The notes: generated from the letters alone by a model not told the origin. 32,000 bases of DNA from Acaryochloris thomasi RCC1774 (GCF_003231495.1 NZ_PQWO01000002.1:390001-422000), one strand, 5' to 3'. Shown: positions 5,112 to 20,106, numbered from the stretch's first letter. A program made the numbers and translations.

Positions 5112-5369
5112 ATGCTTACGGTCAGACTCAATGAAGAAACTGAACGACAGCTTGCTGAGCTGTTAGCTCATGAGACGAATGCTAATCGCAGCGACCTGAT
5201 TAAACGGCTCATTCGTGAGCGCTGGCTGAGCTTGCAACTGGGTAAGACAATCGTGGAGCGGCGAGGTGGACATCCTCAGCATCTCTTAACGGATGCGTCG
5301 CCAGATCGCTCTGAACGCTCCAATCGAAAGCAAGCGATCGCAAACTATTTACAAAATCGCCATTCGTGA
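5112..5369 (+). CDS. ribbon-helix-helix (CopG/VapB-like) antitoxin
   Basis: The N-terminus MLTVRLNEETERQLAELLAHETNANRSDLIKRLIRERW shows the typical RHH beta-strand plus two-helix pattern. Its stop overlaps the start of the downstream PIN gene (GTGA overlap). Confidence 0.75.
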   Translation: MLTVRLNEETERQLAELLAHETNANRSDLIKRLIRERWLSLQLGKTIVERRGGHPQHLLTDASPDRSERSNRKQAIANYLQNRHS

Positions 5370-5797
5370 CCTATCACCCGGTCATCTTGATCGACAGCGG
5401 TATTTTGTTCGCGTACTATAGCGCCAGCGATCATCATCATGTGTCTGTGTGTACCTTTTTTGAGCAATGCACTAGCCGGTTACTGACAACGCCAAGCTAC
5501 ATCACTGAAGTGATGTGGCTGCTGAGTGCCCAGTGGCAAACCCAGAATGAATTCTTGCTCGATGTTGCGAAGGAAATTTATGAGTGTGCAACGCTACTCC
5601 CCCAGGACTTCTGTCGGATTGCGGAGCTGAATGCTCAGTATGCAGATCTACCGGGTGACTTTGCAGATTTAACTCTCGTTGCACTTTCTGAGCGCCTAGA
5701 TATCTCTGCCATTGCAACGCTAGATAGCGATTTTAATCTGTACCGACGGTATCGAAAGCAGCCCTTCGATCGCGTATTTTTGCCAGAGTACTCATAG
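5366..5797 (+). CDS. PIN-domain (VapC-like) toxin ribonuclease
   Basis: 143 aa. The conserved acidic positions are in the expected order: ILIDSG (D), ITEVMW (E), DLTLVAL (D), TLDSDF (D). It is translationally coupled to the RHH gene. Confidence 0.8.
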   Translation: MTYHPVILIDSGILFAYYSASDHHHVSVCTFFEQCTSRLLTTPSYITEVMWLLSAQWQTQNEFLLDVAKEIYECATLLPQDFCRIAELNAQYADLPGDFADLTLVALSERLDISAIATLDSDFNLYRRYRKQPFDRVFLPEYS

Positions 5798-6005
5798 ATG
5801 CATCTGGAACCCACGCATTCATTTCACACTCACTACGACAATTCCAGTCACCACAACGAACCTGCTATGAAGCGGTTTGATCGATTACGGAGCGATAGAG
5901 AGGGGCAAGTACAGCCTTTGTTTGAGATTATTACCCTACAAAGTTTAGAACATCCATCTCAACACACTTTGGGAATACTGGAGTCAACACTGATTCTGCG
6001 AAGGC

Positions 6006-6236
6006 ATGGCAATACTGCTACTGGTAGGAATTTGGATGATTGTCCTTGCAACCGTCGGGCTGCGAGAGCTGATGCTCTCGATTCAGTCAGGCGTTTTGAA
6101 AGGTAAGCATAACTTCAGAACCTATCGAGCGACAGCGCCCGGCAGCTTCTGGTATGGCATTTGCATCCTGGGGGTGGTGATTTTTGTGATGTATTATTTT
6201 GGTCTCTGCTTCTTACGCTCGGCACTGATGCCTTAG
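6006..6236 (+). CDS. small hypothetical membrane protein (two predicted TM helices)
   Basis: 76-aa ORF with two hydrophobic stretches, AILLLVGIWMIVLATVGL and FWYGICILGVVIFVMYYFGLCFL. I recognise no family, and it is weakly supported. Confidence 0.35.
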   Translation: MAILLLVGIWMIVLATVGLRELMLSIQSGVLKGKHNFRTYRATAPGSFWYGICILGVVIFVMYYFGLCFLRSALMP

Positions 6237-6291: not shown

Positions 6292-8547
6292 GTGGAGGCG
6301 ATCGCAACTCTCAAAACCCCTATGGTCGCCCAAACATCCAAAAACACCGGCTTTGACCAGCTCCACGAACAGGTTCAGCGCTGGATTTATGCCCAAGGCT
6401 GGCCGGGACTTCGACCGATCCAAGACGCCGCCGTCTCCCCGATTCTATCTCGCAAATCTGATGTAATCATCACCGCCGCTACCGCAGGGGGTAAAACTGA
6501 AGCCGCTTTTCTACCCGTCTTTTCTCAACTCGTCACCCATCCCGGTAAAAGTATCCAGGTCATTGGCCTAAGTCCCCTCAAGGCCCTCATCAACGACCAG
6601 CATCGACGGCTGGCAGAAATCGGAGAAGGCTTAAGGATTCCAGTCAACGCTTGGCATGGTGACATCGCCTCTGGGAAAAAGAAGCGCGTCCTAGAAAACC
6701 CTGCTGGAGTGGTTCTGATTACCCCTGAATCGTTAGAAGCTCTATTTGTACTCAGAGGCACGCAGCTTGCCGAGCTATTTAAAGATCTGCAGTACATCGT
6801 CATTGATGAAATGCATTCCTTCATTGGCTCTGAGCGAGGCCGACAGATGCAGTCCTTGATGCATCGGGTGGAGCTTGTTGTGGGTAAGCGGGTCATGCGC
6901 GTGGGCCTGAGTGCAACGCTGGGCGATATGTCCCTGGCTGCTGAGTTCTTACGGCCCGGTCATGGTGATGGCGTACAGCTCATTCAGTCAGGCGGCAAAG
7001 ATCAGGACATCAAGCTACAGATCCGAGGGTATGTAAAGCCTGCGTTTGAAGATGACGACGATGTAGATGAAGTACCCAAGGATGAAATGGATCTGCAGCC
7101 TTCTGCGGATGCGATCGCAATTGCGGGTGATTTGTTCAAAGCTTTGCGGGGCGATAAAAACCTGATCTTCATCAACAGCCGTCGTCAGGTGGAGCGGTAT
7201 GCCGATCTGCTGCGATATATGTCCATTGAGCGGCGGGTGCCCAATGAGTTTTTGCCCCACCACGGCAGTCTTGCTAAGGAGCTACGCCAAGAAGCGGAAG
7301 ATGCCCTCAAAGCAGAAGATCGACCGTCCAATGTCATTTGTACAATGACGCTGGAAATGGGCATTGATGTGGGTTCGGTGAAGTCTATTGCTCAGGTGGG
7401 TCCGCCTAGCTCAGTGGCGAGTACCTGTCAGCGCTTGGGACGCTCAGGCCGACGGGCGGGGGAGTCTGCCATTATGCGGGTGTACATTTCAGAACCGGAG
7501 GTAACGCCCAGTACGCCGATTACGAACAGCCTGTATTTTGATTTGGTGCAGGCGATCGCAATCTTCACACTTTTGCTAGAAGGCTGGTTCGAGCCCCCCA
7601 TCATCGGACGCCTGCAGCTCTCGACCCTCATTCAGCAGCTTCTGTCTTTGATTGCTCAGCAAAGCGGCGTCAGACCGGACCAGGCTTGGGACTTCCTCTG
7701 TCGTACAGGCCCCTTTGCCGCCGTCGATCAAGATATCTTTATGGAGCTGCTGCGGACCCTCGGCCACCACGATCTGATCCAGCAAAGTCAGGATGGCTTG
7801 CTTCTACTCGGTATAAAAGGCGAAAAACAGGTTAATCACTATACGTTTTATACAGCGTTCGCCACCCAAGACGAATACCACCTAGTCTCAGATGGCCGAA
7901 CTCTAGGTTCCTTGCCGGTTCGGTCGCCTTTGGTCGAGGGAATGTTTCTGATTTTTGCCGGTCGCCGTTGGGAAGTGATGAGCGTCGATGAACACCGAGG
8001 CAAAGTTGAAGTGATCGGAGCCTCCTCCGGTAAAGCCCCAGATTTTGGAGGTTCTAGCGGTTTTGTACATGATAGATTGCGTCAAACCATGTATAAAATC
8101 TATCTCTCGGATCAGATTCCAGGGTTTCTAGATGAAACGGCCCGTGATTTGCTGCAGACGGCGCGGCAGCAGTTTCGCGACCAGGGCCTGCATCAGACTC
8201 AGGCCCTGGAAGATGGCCGTAGTACTTTGCTATTCCCTTGGCGGGGGAGCGTGATTACGAACACGTTGTTTGTACAGCTATTGGATCGAGGATTGAAGGT
8301 GCAGAACCAAGGGGTGACGCTGAAGGTAAATGGTCTGGATGGGGAAGGGTTGCGATCTCATCTCTTAGAGCTCCTCAACCAAGGCCCCGCTGATCCAGTG
8401 GAGCTAGCGGCAGCCGTCAAAAACAAACGCAACGATAAGTACGACCGCTTTCTCAGTGACGACCTGCTCTGTCGCAACTACGCCGCCAGCCACCTCGATG
8501 CCCAAGGGGCCTGGAGTGTGCTAGAGGAATTATTGGAATCGATCTAA
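6292..8547 (+). CDS. Lhr-like DEAD/DEAH-box (DExH) superfamily 2 helicase
   Basis: Motif I is TAATAGGKTEAAFLP, followed by SPLKALINDQ. Motif II is VIDEMH and motif III is SATLG. Then HHGSLAKELRQEAE, TLEMGIDVG, and motif VI QRLGRSGRR. A ~320-aa C-terminal region follows the core. The start is either GTG 6292 or ATG 6322. Confidence 0.85.
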   Translation: MEAIATLKTPMVAQTSKNTGFDQLHEQVQRWIYAQGWPGLRPIQDAAVSPILSRKSDVIITAATAGGKTEAAFLPVFSQLVTHPGKSIQVIGLSPLKALINDQHRRLAEIGEGLRIPVNAWHGDIASGKKKRVLENPAGVVLITPESLEALFVLRGTQLAELFKDLQYIVIDEMHSFIGSERGRQMQSLMHRVELVVGKRVMRVGLSATLGDMSLAAEFLRPGHGDGVQLIQSGGKDQDIKLQIRGYVKPAFEDDDDVDEVPKDEMDLQPSADAIAIAGDLFKALRGDKNLIFINSRRQVERYADLLRYMSIERRVPNEFLPHHGSLAKELRQEAEDALKAEDRPSNVICTMTLEMGIDVGSVKSIAQVGPPSSVASTCQRLGRSGRRAGESAIMRVYISEPEVTPSTPITNSLYFDLVQAIAIFTLLLEGWFEPPIIGRLQLSTLIQQLLSLIAQQSGVRPDQAWDFLCRTGPFAAVDQDIFMELLRTLGHHDLIQQSQDGLLLLGIKGEKQVNHYTFYTAFATQDEYHLVSDGRTLGSLPVRSPLVEGMFLIFAGRRWEVMSVDEHRGKVEVIGASSGKAPDFGGSSGFVHDRLRQTMYKIYLSDQIPGFLDETARDLLQTARQQFRDQGLHQTQALEDGRSTLLFPWRGSVITNTLFVQLLDRGLKVQNQGVTLKVNGLDGEGLRSHLLELLNQGPADPVELAAAVKNKRNDKYDRFLSDDLLCRNYAASHLDAQGAWSVLEELLESI

Positions 8548-9374
8548 CGCTTTTGAGCAATGTGGAAAGCAGACAGATGTGATAGTGGCAAGCGGCCATC
8601 CAAATGCCTTTCTATGTAGCCTCGCAATTCTTGGAATAAGGCGTCCCGCCGCTGCGACTCTAACTTGAGGTAAGGCGAATAGGTTTGCAAGAGCGTTAAA
8701 TATTGTTCGGCTGTATGGATTACAGAAACTTCGACATACCCAGGACTTATCTTGTCAAAGTGGCCTGAATCAAGTGCGATTTGTCCCAAGTTGTCTAAAA
8801 TTTTGAGCTGCGTGGGTTTATCCTCGTAACGATCGAGCTCTGGCGCATGAGCTGCGTAGATTCTAGAGAAGTGTTGGTGGACAGCTTGACTGGGCTGAAG
8901 TTCCTTATTCCACAGCAGAATCAGAGAGCCACCGGGTTTGAGGGCCTGGGCCGCCTTCTGATAACCCACCTCTGCCGGAATCCAGTGAAAGGAGCTAGCG
9001 GCCACAACCGCGTCGAACTGCTCTGCTTGTAAATCCCATTCCTCAAATGATGTGTTCTGAAGCTCGATTTGCGAATAGTTCTGGCAGTTATTGACTGCCA
9101 GCCGATAGAAGTCAGGATTCGGCTCCAAGCAGAGCATCGGACATTTCAGGGCTGCAAAACTCAACGTGGCGGTGCCGGGGCCACAGCCTACTTCTAGAAG
9201 CTTAGACTCTCTAGACAACTGGGCGATCTCAATGACCTGCTCAATTACAGCCTGCGGATAGCTGGGCCTTGCTTGGTTATAAGCCTCTGCCGCCGGAGAA
9301 TACCAGCTCTTTCGCTGCTCTAATTCTCTACCCGAGTAGCTGCTGATCAGGCCCATCAGTTTTTCTTTATCCAT
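8544..9374 (-). CDS. class I SAM-dependent methyltransferase (small-molecule type)
   Basis: Motif I is LLEVGCGPGTATL, and the later FDAVVAASSFHWIP and LKPGGSLILLWN are typical of the Methyltransf_11/25 fold. Its 3' end overlaps the helicase stop by 4 nt (convergent). Confidence 0.8.
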   Translation of the reverse strand: MDKEKLMGLISSYSGRELEQRKSWYSPAAEAYNQARPSYPQAVIEQVIEIAQLSRESKLLEVGCGPGTATLSFAALKCPMLCLEPNPDFYRLAVNNCQNYSQIELQNTSFEEWDLQAEQFDAVVAASSFHWIPAEVGYQKAAQALKPGGSLILLWNKELQPSQAVHQHFSRIYAAHAPELDRYEDKPTQLKILDNLGQIALDSGHFDKISPGYVEVSVIHTAEQYLTLLQTYSPYLKLESQRRDALFQELRGYIERHLDGRLPLSHLSAFHIAQKR

Positions 9375-9706
9375 ACTGATGGCTCTGAGTAGAAACGCGC
9401 TGTGGTCTAGTGCCAGAGAATCTTTTGGATAACTTTTCGCCTGCTATACATCCGCTTATAGCAGTACCCGGCTGAGTTGGGACAGCCCTTCTTTCGCATA
9501 GATGGGGGTCAGCCATTTTTATATCCTAATCAATACGTGTAATGCTGTATTTCAATGTTTCAAGTGCAGATACGACAAGCGACAAGAAAACAGATATTGC
9601 ACCTTATAAATTAAGGAAAGTTTTTCTCAGACTCATTTCATATTTCTTTTAGAACGGGTCTCTAGTATATGAAATACCGATACCTCACATACCACAACAT
9701 GATCAA

Positions 9707-9736
9707 GCCCAGGGGTAATTTTCCCTGGGCTTTTTT
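9707..9736 (+). terminator. Rho-independent terminator (repeat unit 1)
   Basis: GCCCAGGG gtaatttt CCCTGGGC followed by TTTTTT. Confidence 0.65.
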
Positions 9737-9863
9737 GCTTCTAAAGTCTTTCCCTCTTATTTCTAGAGAAATTTGTGCAGCTCTCATATGCCGTTCATGT
9801 CGTCCTCAGGAGCTGCCCCTAATCTATAAGGTACCGATACCTCACATACCACAACATGATCAA

Positions 9864-9894
9864 GCCCAGGGAAACTCACCCCTGGGCTTTTTTT
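9864..9894 (+). terminator. Rho-independent terminator (repeat unit 2)
   Basis: GCCCAGGG aaactcac CCCTGGGC followed by TTTTTTT. Confidence 0.65.
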
Positions 9895-10023
9895 GTCTGC
9901 TACAGTCTCCCCTTTTTTGTTTTTGGAGAAATTCGTGCAGCTCTCATGTGTCGTTCATGTCGTCCTCAGGAGCTGCCCCTAATCTATAAGGTACCGATAC
10001 CTCACATACCACAACATGATCAA

Positions 10024-10054
10024 GCCCAGGGAAACTCACCCCTGGGCTTTTTTT
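10024..10054 (+). terminator. Rho-independent terminator (repeat unit 3)
   Basis: GCCCAGGG aaactcac CCCTGGGC followed by TTTTTTT. Confidence 0.65.
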
Positions 10055-10080
10055 CCGCAAGCTGGGGCGGCAGGCCAAAC

Positions 10081-11403
10081 CTAAACGGCCTTTAGAACCA
10101 TCGGCAGCCCATTTTGGGGACGGGTATTGAAATTGAAAATAGGCTTAAACACGTAATCTGACGGCAGGCTCAGGCGATAGCGCTGCAAAATCATGGCTAA
10201 GTTAATTCGCATCTGCATCATGGCGAAGCCTTGACCAATGCAGGCTCTTGGCCCACCTGAGAAGGGTAAATAAGCTGATTTAGAGATGTTGCCGTCAGCA
10301 AAGCGGTCAGGGTTGAACGTCAATGGCTCTGGGTAAATATCAGCACGGCGATGCAGTGTCCAAGGTGCGACAACGATCATACTTCTGCTCGGCAGGTGGT
10401 GTCCCTGAATAGTCACAGGTTCAATGGATTGACGGCCTACAAACGCGATTACTGGAAGCAAGCGCATTGATTCTTGTAGCACTTGCTCCAGATAAGGCAT
10501 CTGCTCTAAATCTTCTGCAGTAATTTCGCGTGTACCCAGGACGCGAGCAATTTCGTCACGTAGACGTGCCTCTATATCTGGGTGTTGAGCCAGTAGATAG
10601 AGCGTAAACGCTAGGCTGTAGGCCGTGACTTCATACCCCGCTGCAAATAGATTGCTGACTTCGTTACACACCTGCATGTCGGTGATGTATCCCGTTGTGT
10701 CAGCCTTCTGGCCCTGAACTAACATTGAGAGAATATCGCCTTTGTCTTCACCTGAGGTGCGGCGCTCTTCGATGATGGGCAGGAAAAAATCGTTTCTATC
10801 TTTGAGCAACTTCTTCAGCTCTCGGTTGCTAGGTATAGGAACCCAGGCAGGGGTTGGAACGGAGCTAATCCGCTTGAAAAAAAGTTCAATAAAGCGGAGC
10901 AGGTTTTCTCCCGACTTGCTGCTGTAGAGGTCCATGCCGAAGAAACACTGGGTTGTGGTGCGAAGCGTTAGCTCCATCATGTTGTCGGTGATTTCTACTG
11001 TTTCACCCGGTTGCCAGCGATCTACGATCTGTCGGGTGTAGCCAATTGCTGTTTTGGCGTAGTTCTGGAGACGTGGAACGCTAAAACCAGGCTGAAGGGT
11101 CGATCTCAATATTTTCCAGAGTTCACCGTCGCTGGTGAATAGATTGTCGCCAAAGAGCTGATTGGCTGTGTATTTAATGCCGAAGGGTTTATGAAAGCTG
11201 CGGGACTGTTTGACCATCACCTCCTGAATCAGATCAGGATGGTTGACGAAATAGGTGGGTACTAGGGGGAACGGAATTTTCAGGAAATCGCCCTGGCCTG
11301 CGATGTATTCGATGTATCCCAAAGCGTCTTGGCGGAGCGCCTTCGTATGGTTCCGTTGAGGGTAGCCGCTGGGAGCGATGGCGGCGGGGAGTGTTGAAGG
11401 CAT
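10081..11403 (-). CDS. cytochrome P450
   Basis: The heme-binding Cys loop is FSGGPRACIGQGFAMMQM (FxxGxRxCxG). ESMRL is the K-helix ExxR, and AGYEVTA is the I-helix (A/G)GxxT. Confidence 0.9.
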   Translation of the reverse strand: MPSTLPAAIAPSGYPQRNHTKALRQDALGYIEYIAGQGDFLKIPFPLVPTYFVNHPDLIQEVMVKQSRSFHKPFGIKYTANQLFGDNLFTSDGELWKILRSTLQPGFSVPRLQNYAKTAIGYTRQIVDRWQPGETVEITDNMMELTLRTTTQCFFGMDLYSSKSGENLLRFIELFFKRISSVPTPAWVPIPSNRELKKLLKDRNDFFLPIIEERRTSGEDKGDILSMLVQGQKADTTGYITDMQVCNEVSNLFAAGYEVTAYSLAFTLYLLAQHPDIEARLRDEIARVLGTREITAEDLEQMPYLEQVLQESMRLLPVIAFVGRQSIEPVTIQGHHLPSRSMIVVAPWTLHRRADIYPEPLTFNPDRFADGNISKSAYLPFSGGPRACIGQGFAMMQMRINLAMILQRYRLSLPSDYVFKPIFNFNTRPQNGLPMVLKAV

Positions 11404-11654
11404 AGATTAAACGCCCGGTAAGGATGGATTCAGTGTATCGAAGTCTAGAGCGATCGCTCAAAAGATCGATAGGCTGCACTGGGGGAGTTAACGATGTTAG
11501 ACTGTTTGGTGACTCGGACCCATGCGATCGCAACGCCTCAATCTTGTCAGGACCGGAAGGTAGCAGCAATACGGGATGCTTGTGATAGGCGTGGACTCCG
11601 GGTCACCTTGGTTTAAGGTCCGTTCTCACCACATCGCCACATAGAGTTTTGAGC

Positions 11655-15102: not shown

Positions 15103-15244
15103 CATAAACCCTGGTTGCTTGTCATCCCTTTCAGTCAAGATATGTTGAGCAAAGTTGCATGAACGAGGCCCCTGCGGAATATTGAAGGCATCTGTTCAAG
15201 TTCTTTGACAGTCAGCAATCTTTAGGTTGTGGGGAGGCAAAATT

Positions 15245-15655
15245 ATGAAACCGTTTTATCTGCTGGGGCTATTGGGCCTATTGCTGCCGCTGGCGATCCA
15301 GCCTGCCGAAGCTAAGAGCTGCAGTCCCTACCGTATTAACTATGAAGGAGCGATTACGCAGGGCATTATCCGGCGACCTTCACTCGTGAGCAATGCGAAT
15401 CAATCTTGGCGCTTGTTCCATGTGGCAATGGATCGCAACGACCGTATGGAAGCGGCATCACGAGCGGCCCAATATCTGGTTATTGTTTCTGAACGCAATG
15501 GTACAGCTCAAGCCCATCGAGCACGGCAGCTTGTGGAGTCAGAGTTTACCCGCCGTTACGATCAGCCAGTTGAAGTAGCAATGCCTATCTTTGAGATCAT
15601 TCTCGCCAATAGCGAGGTTGACTGCGAGACTAATTTGGCGCGCCGGATTCGATAG
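15245..15655 (+). CDS. hypothetical secreted protein
   Basis: The ATG at 15245 gives signal peptide MKPFYLLGLLGLLLPLAIQPAEA. I recognise no family. Its 3' end overlaps the convergent GTPase gene by 26 nt. Confidence 0.55.
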   Translation: MKPFYLLGLLGLLLPLAIQPAEAKSCSPYRINYEGAITQGIIRRPSLVSNANQSWRLFHVAMDRNDRMEAASRAAQYLVIVSERNGTAQAHRARQLVESEFTRRYDQPVEVAMPIFEIILANSEVDCETNLARRIR

Positions 15656-18450: not shown

Positions 18451-19905
18451 TTATGTTGCCGATTCTAATAACCCACCCTGACGGCGGAATCTTCCAATTG
18501 CCTTCTGGGAGAAATCTTTGAGTCCCTCAAGCTGCTGTTGCGCGACAAATACTCTTTCCATCGTTTTCTTCAGCTTCTCTGGCTGCCAGTTGCTCTCTGG
18601 TGATACTAATTCCAGCGCATTTAGCTCCTGAAAATGCTCTGTTAGGCTGAGACCCGCTACGTGGGTTAAATGAGCTGCACTAACGCCCTGGAGCAAGCCG
18701 CCCGCGACGAAGGTGAAGGCATGTCCCTTTAGTAAAGCGCTCAATGCTTGGGTTGAAATTTCTACTAAACCGAGCTTCAGCATGGCGCTAGCCATTGTGC
18801 TGGCGATCGCTTGGGCCTGATTGACCGAAAACTTGAGCCGGTAAAGACTACCTAAATCCATTACCATTTTGCCGGAGATAGCAGCAGCGGCTAACAGATC
18901 CAATGTCGGAACGGGGTTGGCAAAGGCGGTAGCTCCCGTAATCCACTGGTAGCGCTCAATGATTGGCTGCGCTAATTCGTGACGAGTTTGGTTGAGCTGA
19001 ACTTGAATTTCAGATTGGAGGCTCAGGGTCTGCTGGTATGTTTGCTGCAGAATGAGCTGTTCGGTATCTTCAGCGATGATCTGATTGAGTCGCTGCGTTA
19101 GAGCTTTGATATCTGGCTCGGGAGCTTCCAGGATTTCGTGATAGGAACCGTCTTCTTGGTAGCGGCGGACTTTTATGGGGTTGGGCTGGGATGCGATCGC
19201 AACCACATCAACAACAGATTCTTCACCCTGCAACTGCTGCTTAATCTTTTCCTGTAAGACTGTCCGCTGAGCAGGCAAATACTGGTCCTGCTTATTGAAC
19301 AACACCAGCATCTGCTTTTGGTATGCGTCTAAAGCCTGCAAACATTGGAACTCTGACTGTGTCAGATCGCCCTGAGTCACAAACAGGACCACGTCCGCCG
19401 TTGAGAGGGGCTGCGGAAGCTGCTTAAACGTTCCCAATGTTTCTAGAGCATTGGCAGGGGGCACTGCTTCAGTCAGTAACTGGCTGCTTTCGCTAAAGCC
19501 ACAATTGAACTGCCCTTTAAGCAGATCCAAAACAGTGGATTTGCCCACACCGCTGTTGCCCATCACCGTGAGCTGGAGCGTCTCGCGTTCCAGACCTGTC
19601 TTTACCTCTGTCAACTGTGGCTTCCAGGATTCTGCTGCTTCACCCACCATCTCTTCTAGATGATCAATCAGCGTCTCAGTCTTGGCAAACGTTTTCTGGA
19701 CCGTCTGACGCGTTACCGCCGCCGTCTCCAGAGGCGCAATCTCTTTGCGACCGACCTTCAGCCACACCGCCAGAATGCCCAGCCCCAAGACAAGGCCCGT
19801 GACCATAAAGTCAGAGAAGCCGCGCTCATCTGGTATTAAGAAGTACAGGGCAAAGATAATGGCCCCCGCTCCCCACATCAGACGCTGTTTTGTTTGGGCA
19901 GACAT
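18451..19905 (-). CDS. GTPase-like protein with N-terminal TM segments and a C-terminal DUF697-type membrane domain; switch II is divergent
   Basis: G1 is VMGNSGVGKSTVLDLL and G4 is LFNKQD. The position equivalent to DTPG reads ETLG. The track ORF runs to 20043 but would overlap the tRNA and its terminator, so the likely start is ATG 19905 (MSAQTKQ...) or ATG 19944. Confidence 0.7.
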   Translation of the reverse strand: MSAQTKQRLMWGAGAIIFALYFLIPDERGFSDFMVTGLVLGLGILAVWLKVGRKEIAPLETAAVTRQTVQKTFAKTETLIDHLEEMVGEAAESWKPQLTEVKTGLERETLQLTVMGNSGVGKSTVLDLLKGQFNCGFSESSQLLTEAVPPANALETLGTFKQLPQPLSTADVVLFVTQGDLTQSEFQCLQALDAYQKQMLVLFNKQDQYLPAQRTVLQEKIKQQLQGEESVVDVVAIASQPNPIKVRRYQEDGSYHEILEAPEPDIKALTQRLNQIIAEDTEQLILQQTYQQTLSLQSEIQVQLNQTRHELAQPIIERYQWITGATAFANPVPTLDLLAAAAISGKMVMDLGSLYRLKFSVNQAQAIASTMASAMLKLGLVEISTQALSALLKGHAFTFVAGGLLQGVSAAHLTHVAGLSLTEHFQELNALELVSPESNWQPEKLKKTMERVFVAQQQLEGLKDFSQKAIGRFRRQGGLLESAT

Positions 19906-19980
19906 ACCTGGACCCCTCTCGTATGGGTATATTCTCATCGCCATTCTCGCAGAAATTAGCCCGAAATCGCAGGGTTTGTC

Positions 19981-20021
19981 ACAAAAGAACAGCCCCAGGA
20001 AAGTTAGCTTTCCTGGGGCTG
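19981..20021 (-). terminator. Rho-independent terminator downstream of tRNA-fMet
   Basis: On the minus strand: cagccccaggaaag-ctaa-ctttcctggggctg, a perfect 14-bp stem, followed by ttcttttgt. Confidence 0.6.
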
Positions 20022-20029
20022 TTCGTGCT

Positions 20030-20106
<77 letters not shown>

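Follow-up and report, generated by a model that had tools for sequence, protein, structure and literature searches.

Tandem genes for a predicted ~61-nt small RNA, conserved at a single locus in Acaryochloris-related cyanobacteria

Between a methyltransferase gene and a cytochrome P450 gene of Acaryochloris thomasi RCC1774, positions 9600-10054 of the stretch analyzed here (GCF_003231495.1, NZ_PQWO01000002.1:390001-422000; 32,000 nt, called the window below) hold three head-to-tail units, which we interpret as probable genes of a small RNA (sRNA). The start-to-start spacings are 157 and 160 bp (Table 1). Every unit contains the same 32-nt block, TACCGATACCTCACATACCACAACATGATCAA, found exactly three times in the window (at 9675, 9832, and 9992), always on the + strand and with no mismatch (0 copies expected, 100 shuffles). 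On the 3′ side of each block stands the hairpin AAGCCCAGGG-N8-CCCTGGGCTT, which occurs nowhere else in the window, followed by a run of six or seven T on the + strand only. The identical blocks, the hairpins with their T runs, the change of loop between unit 1 and units 2 and 3, and the minus strand orientation of both flanking genes had all been recognized in a first-pass annotation of the sequence, and all of them stand; the stem, which had been counted as 8 bp, has 10 bp and is GC-rich (8 bp are obtained with GCCCAGGG alone). Because both neighboring genes are on the - strand, the + strand terminators serve neither of them. With Tandem Repeats Finder, the array gives a period of 160, with 2.4 copies and 90% matches. 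A repeat search returns a 138-nt family at 9600, 9757, and 9917, with identities of 66%, 100%, and 96%, respectively.

Table 1. Predicted sRNA copies, their promoters, and neighboring genes in the window
Feature	Position	Strand	Description
sRNA copy 1 (predicted)	9676..9736	+	61 nt; 29-nt unstructured 5′ segment, hairpin 9705-9732 (loop GTAATTTT), T6; minimum free energy (MFE) -21 kcal/mol, z = -5.1; covariance model 84 bits
sRNA copy 2 (predicted)	9833..9894	+	62 nt; 5′ 29 nt as in copy 1, hairpin 9862-9889 (loop AAACTCAC), T7; MFE -19.9 kcal/mol, z = -5.1; covariance model 93 bits
sRNA copy 3 (predicted)	9993..10054	+	62 nt; RNA same as copy 2, hairpin 10022-10049; covariance model 93.7 bits
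Putative promoter of copy 1 (type 1)	9625..9668	+	TCTCAG 9625-9630, TTCATA 9637-9642, degenerate box 3 TTAGA 9649-9653, -10 box TAGTAT 9663-9668
Putative promoter of copy 2 (type 2)	9782..9825	+	TCTCAT 9782-9787, TTCATG 9794-9799, TCAGG 9806-9810, -10 box TAATCT 9820-9825
Putative promoter of copy 3 (type 2)	9942..9985	+	TCTCAT 9942-9947, TTCATG 9954-9959, TCAGG 9966-9970, -10 box TAATCT 9980-9985
Class I SAM-dependent methyltransferase	8544..9374	-	Pfam Methyltransf_25/11/12; divergent upstream neighbor
Cytochrome P450	10081..11403	-	Pfam p450, E = 6e-82; between array and ffs
ffs (signal recognition particle RNA)	11511..11607	+	Rfam RF00169, 59.4 bits; downstream neighbor, not part of sRNA

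Counted from the predicted start through the T run, the RNA variants measure 60-65 nt, somewhat more than the ~55-60 nt first proposed. The proposed architecture, an unstructured 5′ segment and a terminator, is reproduced by the folds. In all variants tested (n = 4; MFE and centroid structures), the 5′ 26-29 nt are unpaired and a single terminator hairpin forms, with energies between -13 and -21 kcal/mol (z -3.0 to -5.1). In the alignment, the helix is paired in 97% of the cells. Eight one-sided changes in the stem keep the pair (A>G opposite U, C>U opposite G); all of them lead to G-U or U-G pairs in the + strand RNA and to A-C mismatches on the - strand. Because of these wobble changes, the one-sided T run, and the promoter described below, the RNA strand is fixed as the + strand.

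The unit is conserved in relatives, which were collected as contigs encoding close homologues of the methyltransferase and P450 neighbors (designated here by L numbers) and through one exact-core scan of species genomes. In total, 15 units (14 distinct RNAs) occur in eight lineages of Acaryochloris-related cyanobacteria, with one to three units per genome. There are three in the window and in L001 (= L002 = L017), at least two in L003 (at a contig end), two each in L005 and L020, and one each in L014, L019, and L022 (= L023). Ungapped comparisons between different lineages, anchored on a conserved A, give an identity of 98-100% for positions +1 to +22 (ACCGAUACCUCAYAUACCACAA), 76-81% for a three-box region at -52 to -23, and 67-72% for the -10 box with the discriminator region. 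In the flanks, the identity falls to 41-48% at -80 to -53 and to 27-35% in the 20 nt that follow the T run. Over the same lineages, the methyltransferase protein encoded next to the sRNA is just 68-93% identical. Conservation sets in sharply with the -10 box and with the A of ACCGAUACC. Because related contigs carry the same unit, with its 5′ 22 nt invariant and its flanks decayed, it is a conserved gene rather than a chance repeat.

In the exact-core scan of 185,579 species genomes, the core was found in two cyanobacterial species represented by metagenome-assembled genomes (MAGs), in each at this locus only, together with about nine chance matches in unrelated phyla. The metagenome scan yielded only two matches, both by chance, inside coding sequence and without the hairpin, and the plasmid and phage collections contained no match. 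A covariance model built from the 14 distinct RNAs and run without filters detected no further copies in the loci scanned. Even so searched, L004, L006, L024, L025, and L028, where the methyltransferase or the P450 is 64-67% identical and the other neighbors differ, have no copy. Because the core lies at one locus in both MAG species and the metagenome, plasmid, phage, and distant-locus scans are empty, the unit is best described, from its distribution, as a single-locus and clade-restricted gene and not as a dispersed repeat. As to the clade itself, AtpB of the window is 97-98% identical to that of 'Thermosynechococcaceae' MAGs and 93% to that of Acaryochloris marina; the best named matches of the P450 and of the methyltransferase are in marine cyanobacterial MAGs.

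The upstream regions were aligned without gaps for all 14 full-length cases. Positions T-13, A-12, and T-8 are conserved in 14/14, and the hexamer TAnTAT is exactly 7 nt on the 5′ side of the conserved A. No TTGACA-like hexamer is present 16-18 bp upstream of the -10 box in these 14 promoters. Instead, three boxes with a TCA core follow each other in direct orientation and in an exact 11-bp phase: TCTCA(T/G) at -51 to -46, TTCA(T/G)G at -39 to -34, and TCAGG at -27 to -23. They form 8-bp repeats (-52 to -45, -41 to -34, and -30 to -23) separated by 3-bp linkers, and the last one ends 9 bp before the -10 box (-13 to -8). The pattern TCA-N8-TCA-N8-TCA is present in 14/15 promoters and nowhere else, on either strand, in the ~135 kb of window and loci; the only unit without three TCA cores is unit 1 of the window, with TTAGA as the third box.

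The first-pass annotation had described upstream of units 2 and 3 a block of three elements, which fared unequally. The direct repeat TCATGT-N5-TCATGT is real and corresponds to boxes 1 and 2 of the three. The -10 element had been placed 3-4 nt too far downstream, at ctataa/tataag, a sequence that L001, L020, and L022 lack; the element is TAATCT/TAGTAT. The third, a GCAGCTC...GAGCTGC inverted repeat, does bracket the promoter boxes of units 2 and 3 (9777-9816, 9937-9976); it is restricted to the window lineage. As a functional stem, it is rejected since it is not conserved in L001, L003, L005, or L020, and it is probably incidental. The remark that the repeat has the geometry of OmpR-type response-regulator sites is strengthened by the phased boxes in 14/15 promoters.

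The sites of PhoB in E. coli and of SphR/PhoB in cyanobacteria are 8-bp direct repeats with 3-bp linkers, located ~10 bp upstream of the -10 box, where they replace the -35 element; in cyanobacteria, there are three repeats (PMC1906773; PMC11126600). The sRNA promoters are alike, with three 8-bp repeats, 3-bp linkers, and a position close upstream of the -10 box (14/15 units). In E. coli, the Pho half-site is CTGTCAT, and the cores TCTCAT, TTCATG, and TCAGG are closer to it, with 6/8, 6/8, and 4/8 matches, respectively. We found no evidence for a phosphate link of the sRNA locus and, in the literature, no report linking TTCAT direct repeats to cyanobacterial response regulators.

The invariant 5′ segment, ACCGAUACCUCA(C/U)AUACCACAA, is poor in G and includes GAUACCUC. 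This motif resembles the anti-Shine–Dalgarno end of 16S rRNA, and because of this likeness, a pairing of the sRNA with ribosome-binding sites is suggested. The units have the features generally found in trans-encoded sRNAs: a predicted promoter of their own, a Rho-independent terminator, an intergenic position, and a strand that serves no neighbor. The conservation, 98-100% identity versus 27-48% in the flanks of a non-coding sequence, is also of that kind. Thus, the interval likely contains three tandem paralogous genes of a trans-acting sRNA of ~61 nt, forming a new family restricted to a clade of marine Acaryochloris-related cyanobacteria. The multicopy, terminator-capped locus with its own promoters, as first proposed, is supported by the conservation in eight lineages and by the fixed distance of the -10 box.

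From these sequence features, we infer how transcription, its start, its activator, and the targets might be arranged. Each unit would be an independent transcription unit, with a -35-less promoter, three boxes, and an intrinsic terminator (10-bp stem and U6-7 tail). A winged-helix response regulator of the OmpR/PhoB family would bind to the three boxes and activate the promoter. The conserved A (9676, 9833, and 9993) would be the first nucleotide of the transcript, and the terminator its end. The 5′ CCUC-containing seed of the RNA (the first 22 nt) could then base pair with mRNAs from other parts of the genome, at their ribosome-binding regions. The copy number (one to three) changes by local duplication, and the two promoter types may set the dosage or integrate different inputs.

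Several points weigh against this scheme. The cyanobacterial Pho box has the consensus CTTAACCT, with an essential TTAA core (PMC1906773; PMC11126600), whereas in the 14 aligned promoters the box cores are CTCA or TTCA and never TTAA. Because the geometry is PhoB-like but the TTAA core is never present, the putative activator, on geometry, would belong to the winged-helix response regulators of the OmpR/PhoB family but would not be SphR. A repressor could bind the boxes just as well, and no response-regulator gene lies within the 32-kb window. The hairpin lacks double-sided covariation and its 3′ arm is invariant; the structural support comes from the wobble-compatible (G-U) changes and the thermodynamics, so the covariation anticipated as a check on the hairpin did not appear. 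Finally, an RNA duplex scan covering the 32-kb window revealed no convincing target; the best non-self duplexes, at -22 to -24 kcal/mol, are inside coding regions or not conserved.

CCACAAC and CCUC of the sRNA can pair in part with GGTTGTGGGGAGG at 15221-15250 (+), the ribosome-binding region of a 142-amino-acid open reading frame (ORF) at 15227 that has no match in Pfam. Within this site, GUUGUGG is conserved in L001 but GAGG is not, which makes it a weak candidate target.

The sRNA has no counterpart in Rfam. With Rfam 15 at gathering thresholds, ffs and a tRNA are the sole matches in the whole window. When 9380-10100 is searched at E <= 10, no cyanobacterial sRNA family is returned, and only sub-threshold matches driven by the terminator are seen (VrrA, His_leader, MicC). 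The best of them, VrrA, has 28 bits versus a gathering score of 50, and just its terminator aligns. In the literature, 13-mers of the RNA matched only unrelated papers; the Acaryochloris sRNA inventory (PMC5295598) is given as coordinates only and is not comparable by sequence.

The first-pass annotation had pointed out that CCUCACA overlaps the core of the Yfr1 motif without a full match. The heptamer is indeed shared, together with the small size (54-69 nt) and a C-rich single-stranded motif before the terminator, as in Yfr1/Yfr10 (PMC2190773). Yfr1 is characterized by a perfectly conserved unpaired undecamer, ACUCCUCACAC, by a 5′ stem-loop (6-10-bp helix) and a 3′ terminator, and, in most genomes, by the synteny guaB-yfr1-trxA (PMC2190773); within the motif, UCCU is needed for pairing (PMC6778093). 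The sRNA described here has AUACCUCACAU instead, with 8/11 positions of the motif and ACCU in place of UCCU, and all 14 RNAs keep this form, a single C>U change being the exception. Unlike Yfr1, there is no 5′ stem-loop (nucleotides 1-26/29 are unpaired in the four variants folded), and the neighbors are methyltransferase, P450, and ffs rather than guaB and trxA. Membership in Yfr1/Yfr10 is rejected on motif, 5′ stem-loop, and synteny.

The tandem-array design is shared with NsiR1, an array located upstream of hetF and dependent on NtcA/HetR in heterocyst-forming cyanobacteria (PMC6596454). Here, the neighbors are different (methyltransferase/P450/ffs), no GTA-N8-TAC is found in the 14 aligned promoters, and no sequence match was found; membership in NsiR1 is rejected. 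Acaryochloris, a relative of the host, is not known to form heterocysts. In Enterobacteriaceae, OmrA and OmrB are tandem sibling sRNAs of 82-88 nt, activated by OmpR and dependent on Hfq. The likeness to the present locus extends to adjacent paralogous genes, each with its own promoter and terminator, to a nearly identical 5′ seed end, and to an OmpR-family regulator (predicted here). On the other hand, the phylum is different, there is no sequence similarity, and the cyanobacterial RNA is shorter and without a central variable domain. OmrA/OmrB can be seen as the closest analogue by design, with no homology.

The RNA might be made as described and yet bind or titrate a protein or another RNA, for example by sponging up a Yfr2-like sRNA that contains the motif GUGAGG. 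We consider this unlikely. The invariant stretch of 22-27 nt is longer than a typical seed of 7-12 nt, but long invariant 5′ ends also occur in base-pairing sRNAs with multiple targets such as OmrA/B. The loop GAAACUCAC offers a second CUCAC and is conserved in 9/14 RNAs; in 4/14 copies, however, the loop is replaced, and in a fifth it has a single change, while the gene is kept. Yfr1 and Yfr10, which have CCUCACA in common, do pair with Yfr2 (PMC6778093), but no partner was identified for the sRNA.

A function in cis is quite improbable. The units would then be antisense or 3′-end structures for the P450 mRNA, or insulators between the methyltransferase promoter and the P450. Only 27 nt separate the end of unit 3 from the stop codon of P450, which is transcribed toward it, so that a read-through 3′ untranslated region of P450 would be perfectly complementary to the unit, and the palindromic hairpin would fold in the - strand RNA as well (the covariance model matches the reverse strand with 20-30 bits). 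However, the sRNA is equally conserved in L014 and L019, where there is no P450, and in L020, where a remnant is left. Downstream of the hairpin, the - strand reads UUGAUCAUG instead of a U run, the wobble changes fit the + strand only, and the conserved -10 box and upstream boxes indicate initiation on the + strand.

The first-pass annotation had itself named a dispersed, MITE-like (miniature inverted-repeat transposable element) repeat as an alternative. A tandem direct repeat with a palindrome, in a copy number that varies between genomes, would indeed suit a non-transcribed repetitive DNA, either REP- (repetitive extragenic palindrome) or MITE-like or an array of protein-binding sites, with the hairpins acting at the DNA level. 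Against this stand the scans of genomes, metagenomes, plasmids, and phages and the covariance model, in which the element is not dispersed: it is a single locus per genome (one stretch in each of the two MAG species) without additional model matches or any match in plasmids or phages. Moreover, there are neither terminal inverted repeats nor target-site duplications, the conservation is asymmetric and changes sharply at the predicted +1, the -10 box keeps a fixed distance, and the T run is one-stranded. We regard this explanation as very improbable.

The idea that each unit encodes a small peptide has next to nothing in its favor and is rejected: the AUG at nucleotide 24, the only one in the transcript, is conserved and in L001 U2 stays in frame with the hairpin, and mechanical ORFs of 79 and 106 amino acids span the repeats, but there is no Shine–Dalgarno sequence and no in-frame stop before the terminator, the frame shifts between copies with T runs of 6-10 and linker indels, the AUG is lost in the L019 RNA (CCUAAU), and Pfam finds nothing in the repeat-spanning ORFs. 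The unit is non-coding.

The promoters of the sRNA genes are of two types, which trace the history of the array. Type 1, with an A/T-rich upstream region (aatttttctcat), occurs in every lineage and is the sole type in the single-copy genomes. Orthologues of type 2 (gcagctctcatgtgtcgttcatgtcgtcctcagg) are found in the window, L001, L003, L005, and L020, and they are 80-93% identical over the boxes across genomes. Inside one genome, types 1 and 2 are only 53-73% identical. Since the type 2 promoters are closer across genomes than to type 1 within a genome, the first duplication predates the split of these lineages. In the window, units 2 and 3 have promoters 93-100% identical, a sign that they duplicated recently; in L001, they are 97% identical over the boxes and 89-100% in the remaining core promoter. 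Both pairs look like later, independent duplications. One copy of L001 (U2, L001 7526-7586, -) has diverged: position +1 is G, 2 nt are deleted after CCACAA, and the loop is GGGAAUUCCA; its promoter is still ~97% identical to that of the neighboring copy over the three boxes. It may be a paralogue in the course of sub-functionalization or decay.

Orthologues of the methyltransferase flank the sRNA in 6/8 lineages; the exceptions are L003, whose contig stops short of the gene, and L019, where ~2.7 kb lie between the two. L014 and L019 lack the P450 gene, and L020 retains only its 3′ end (L020 ~2300-2470, - as displayed). Given these absences and this remnant, the clade has seen a gain or loss of P450 at this position. 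The sRNA is kept where P450 is missing and, in L019, at a distance of 2.7 kb from the methyltransferase gene; it is therefore independent of both protein genes.

Across lineages, the most constant neighbor of the sRNA locus is ffs. The sRNA is always on the ffs strand and upstream of ffs wherever ffs is found (window, L001, L003, L014, L019, and L020). The distance is 55 nt in L014, 141 nt in L019, 470 nt in L020 with the P450 remnant in between, and ~1.5 kb in the window (with an intact P450 gene on the opposite strand in between) as well as in L001 and L003 (also with P450 in between). The L005 contig ends too near P450 to show ffs, and no ffs was found in the 8.8 kb of sequence of L022. A conserved block of its own precedes ffs (window 11480-11510; gt[ct]aacgatgTTAGACTg); it resembles an extended -10 promoter and recurs in L014 and L019. 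Because of this block, the sRNA is not a leader of ffs. Neither the separation from the methyltransferase (L019) nor the insertion or decay of P450 between sRNA and ffs has broken the linkage. We nevertheless give little credence to a conserved functional module of the sRNA and the signal recognition particle (SRP) RNA gene. If the linkage were functional, the translation of membrane or secreted proteins could be tuned in line with SRP capacity by an anti-Shine–Dalgarno-like sRNA under the control of a response regulator that senses envelope state or stress, a circuit previously undescribed in cyanobacteria.

Elsewhere in the window, a tRNA-Met (CAT) at 20030-20106 (-) overlaps the called GTG start (20043) of a 530-amino-acid DUF697 ORF (18451-20043), the real start of which is further downstream. 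A gene for a Uma2-family endonuclease is found at 276-851, a pair of adjacent KGK-domain genes at 1247-2051, and a PIN-domain gene with a small ORF behind it at 5366-6106. These genes are accessory or toxin-antitoxin-like, of the type seen in filamentous cyanobacteria, and unrelated to the sRNA.

To our knowledge, there are few cyanobacterial sRNAs with known regulator and targets, and almost none from the Acaryochloris/Thermosynechococcaceae lineage. The family described here is uncatalogued but belongs to an ordinary, well-known kind of bacterial regulator, and the locus offers a useful annotation and a testable lead, not a new principle. It is a cleanly delimited candidate, with an invariant 22-nt seed, a predicted start, and a three-box promoter signature. 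That signature (TCA-N8-TCA-N8-TCA, 9 bp, TAnTAT) can be searched genome-wide and could lead to the regulon of the putative response regulator. With one to three copies and two promoter types, the locus also illustrates how families of sibling sRNAs arise through local duplication.

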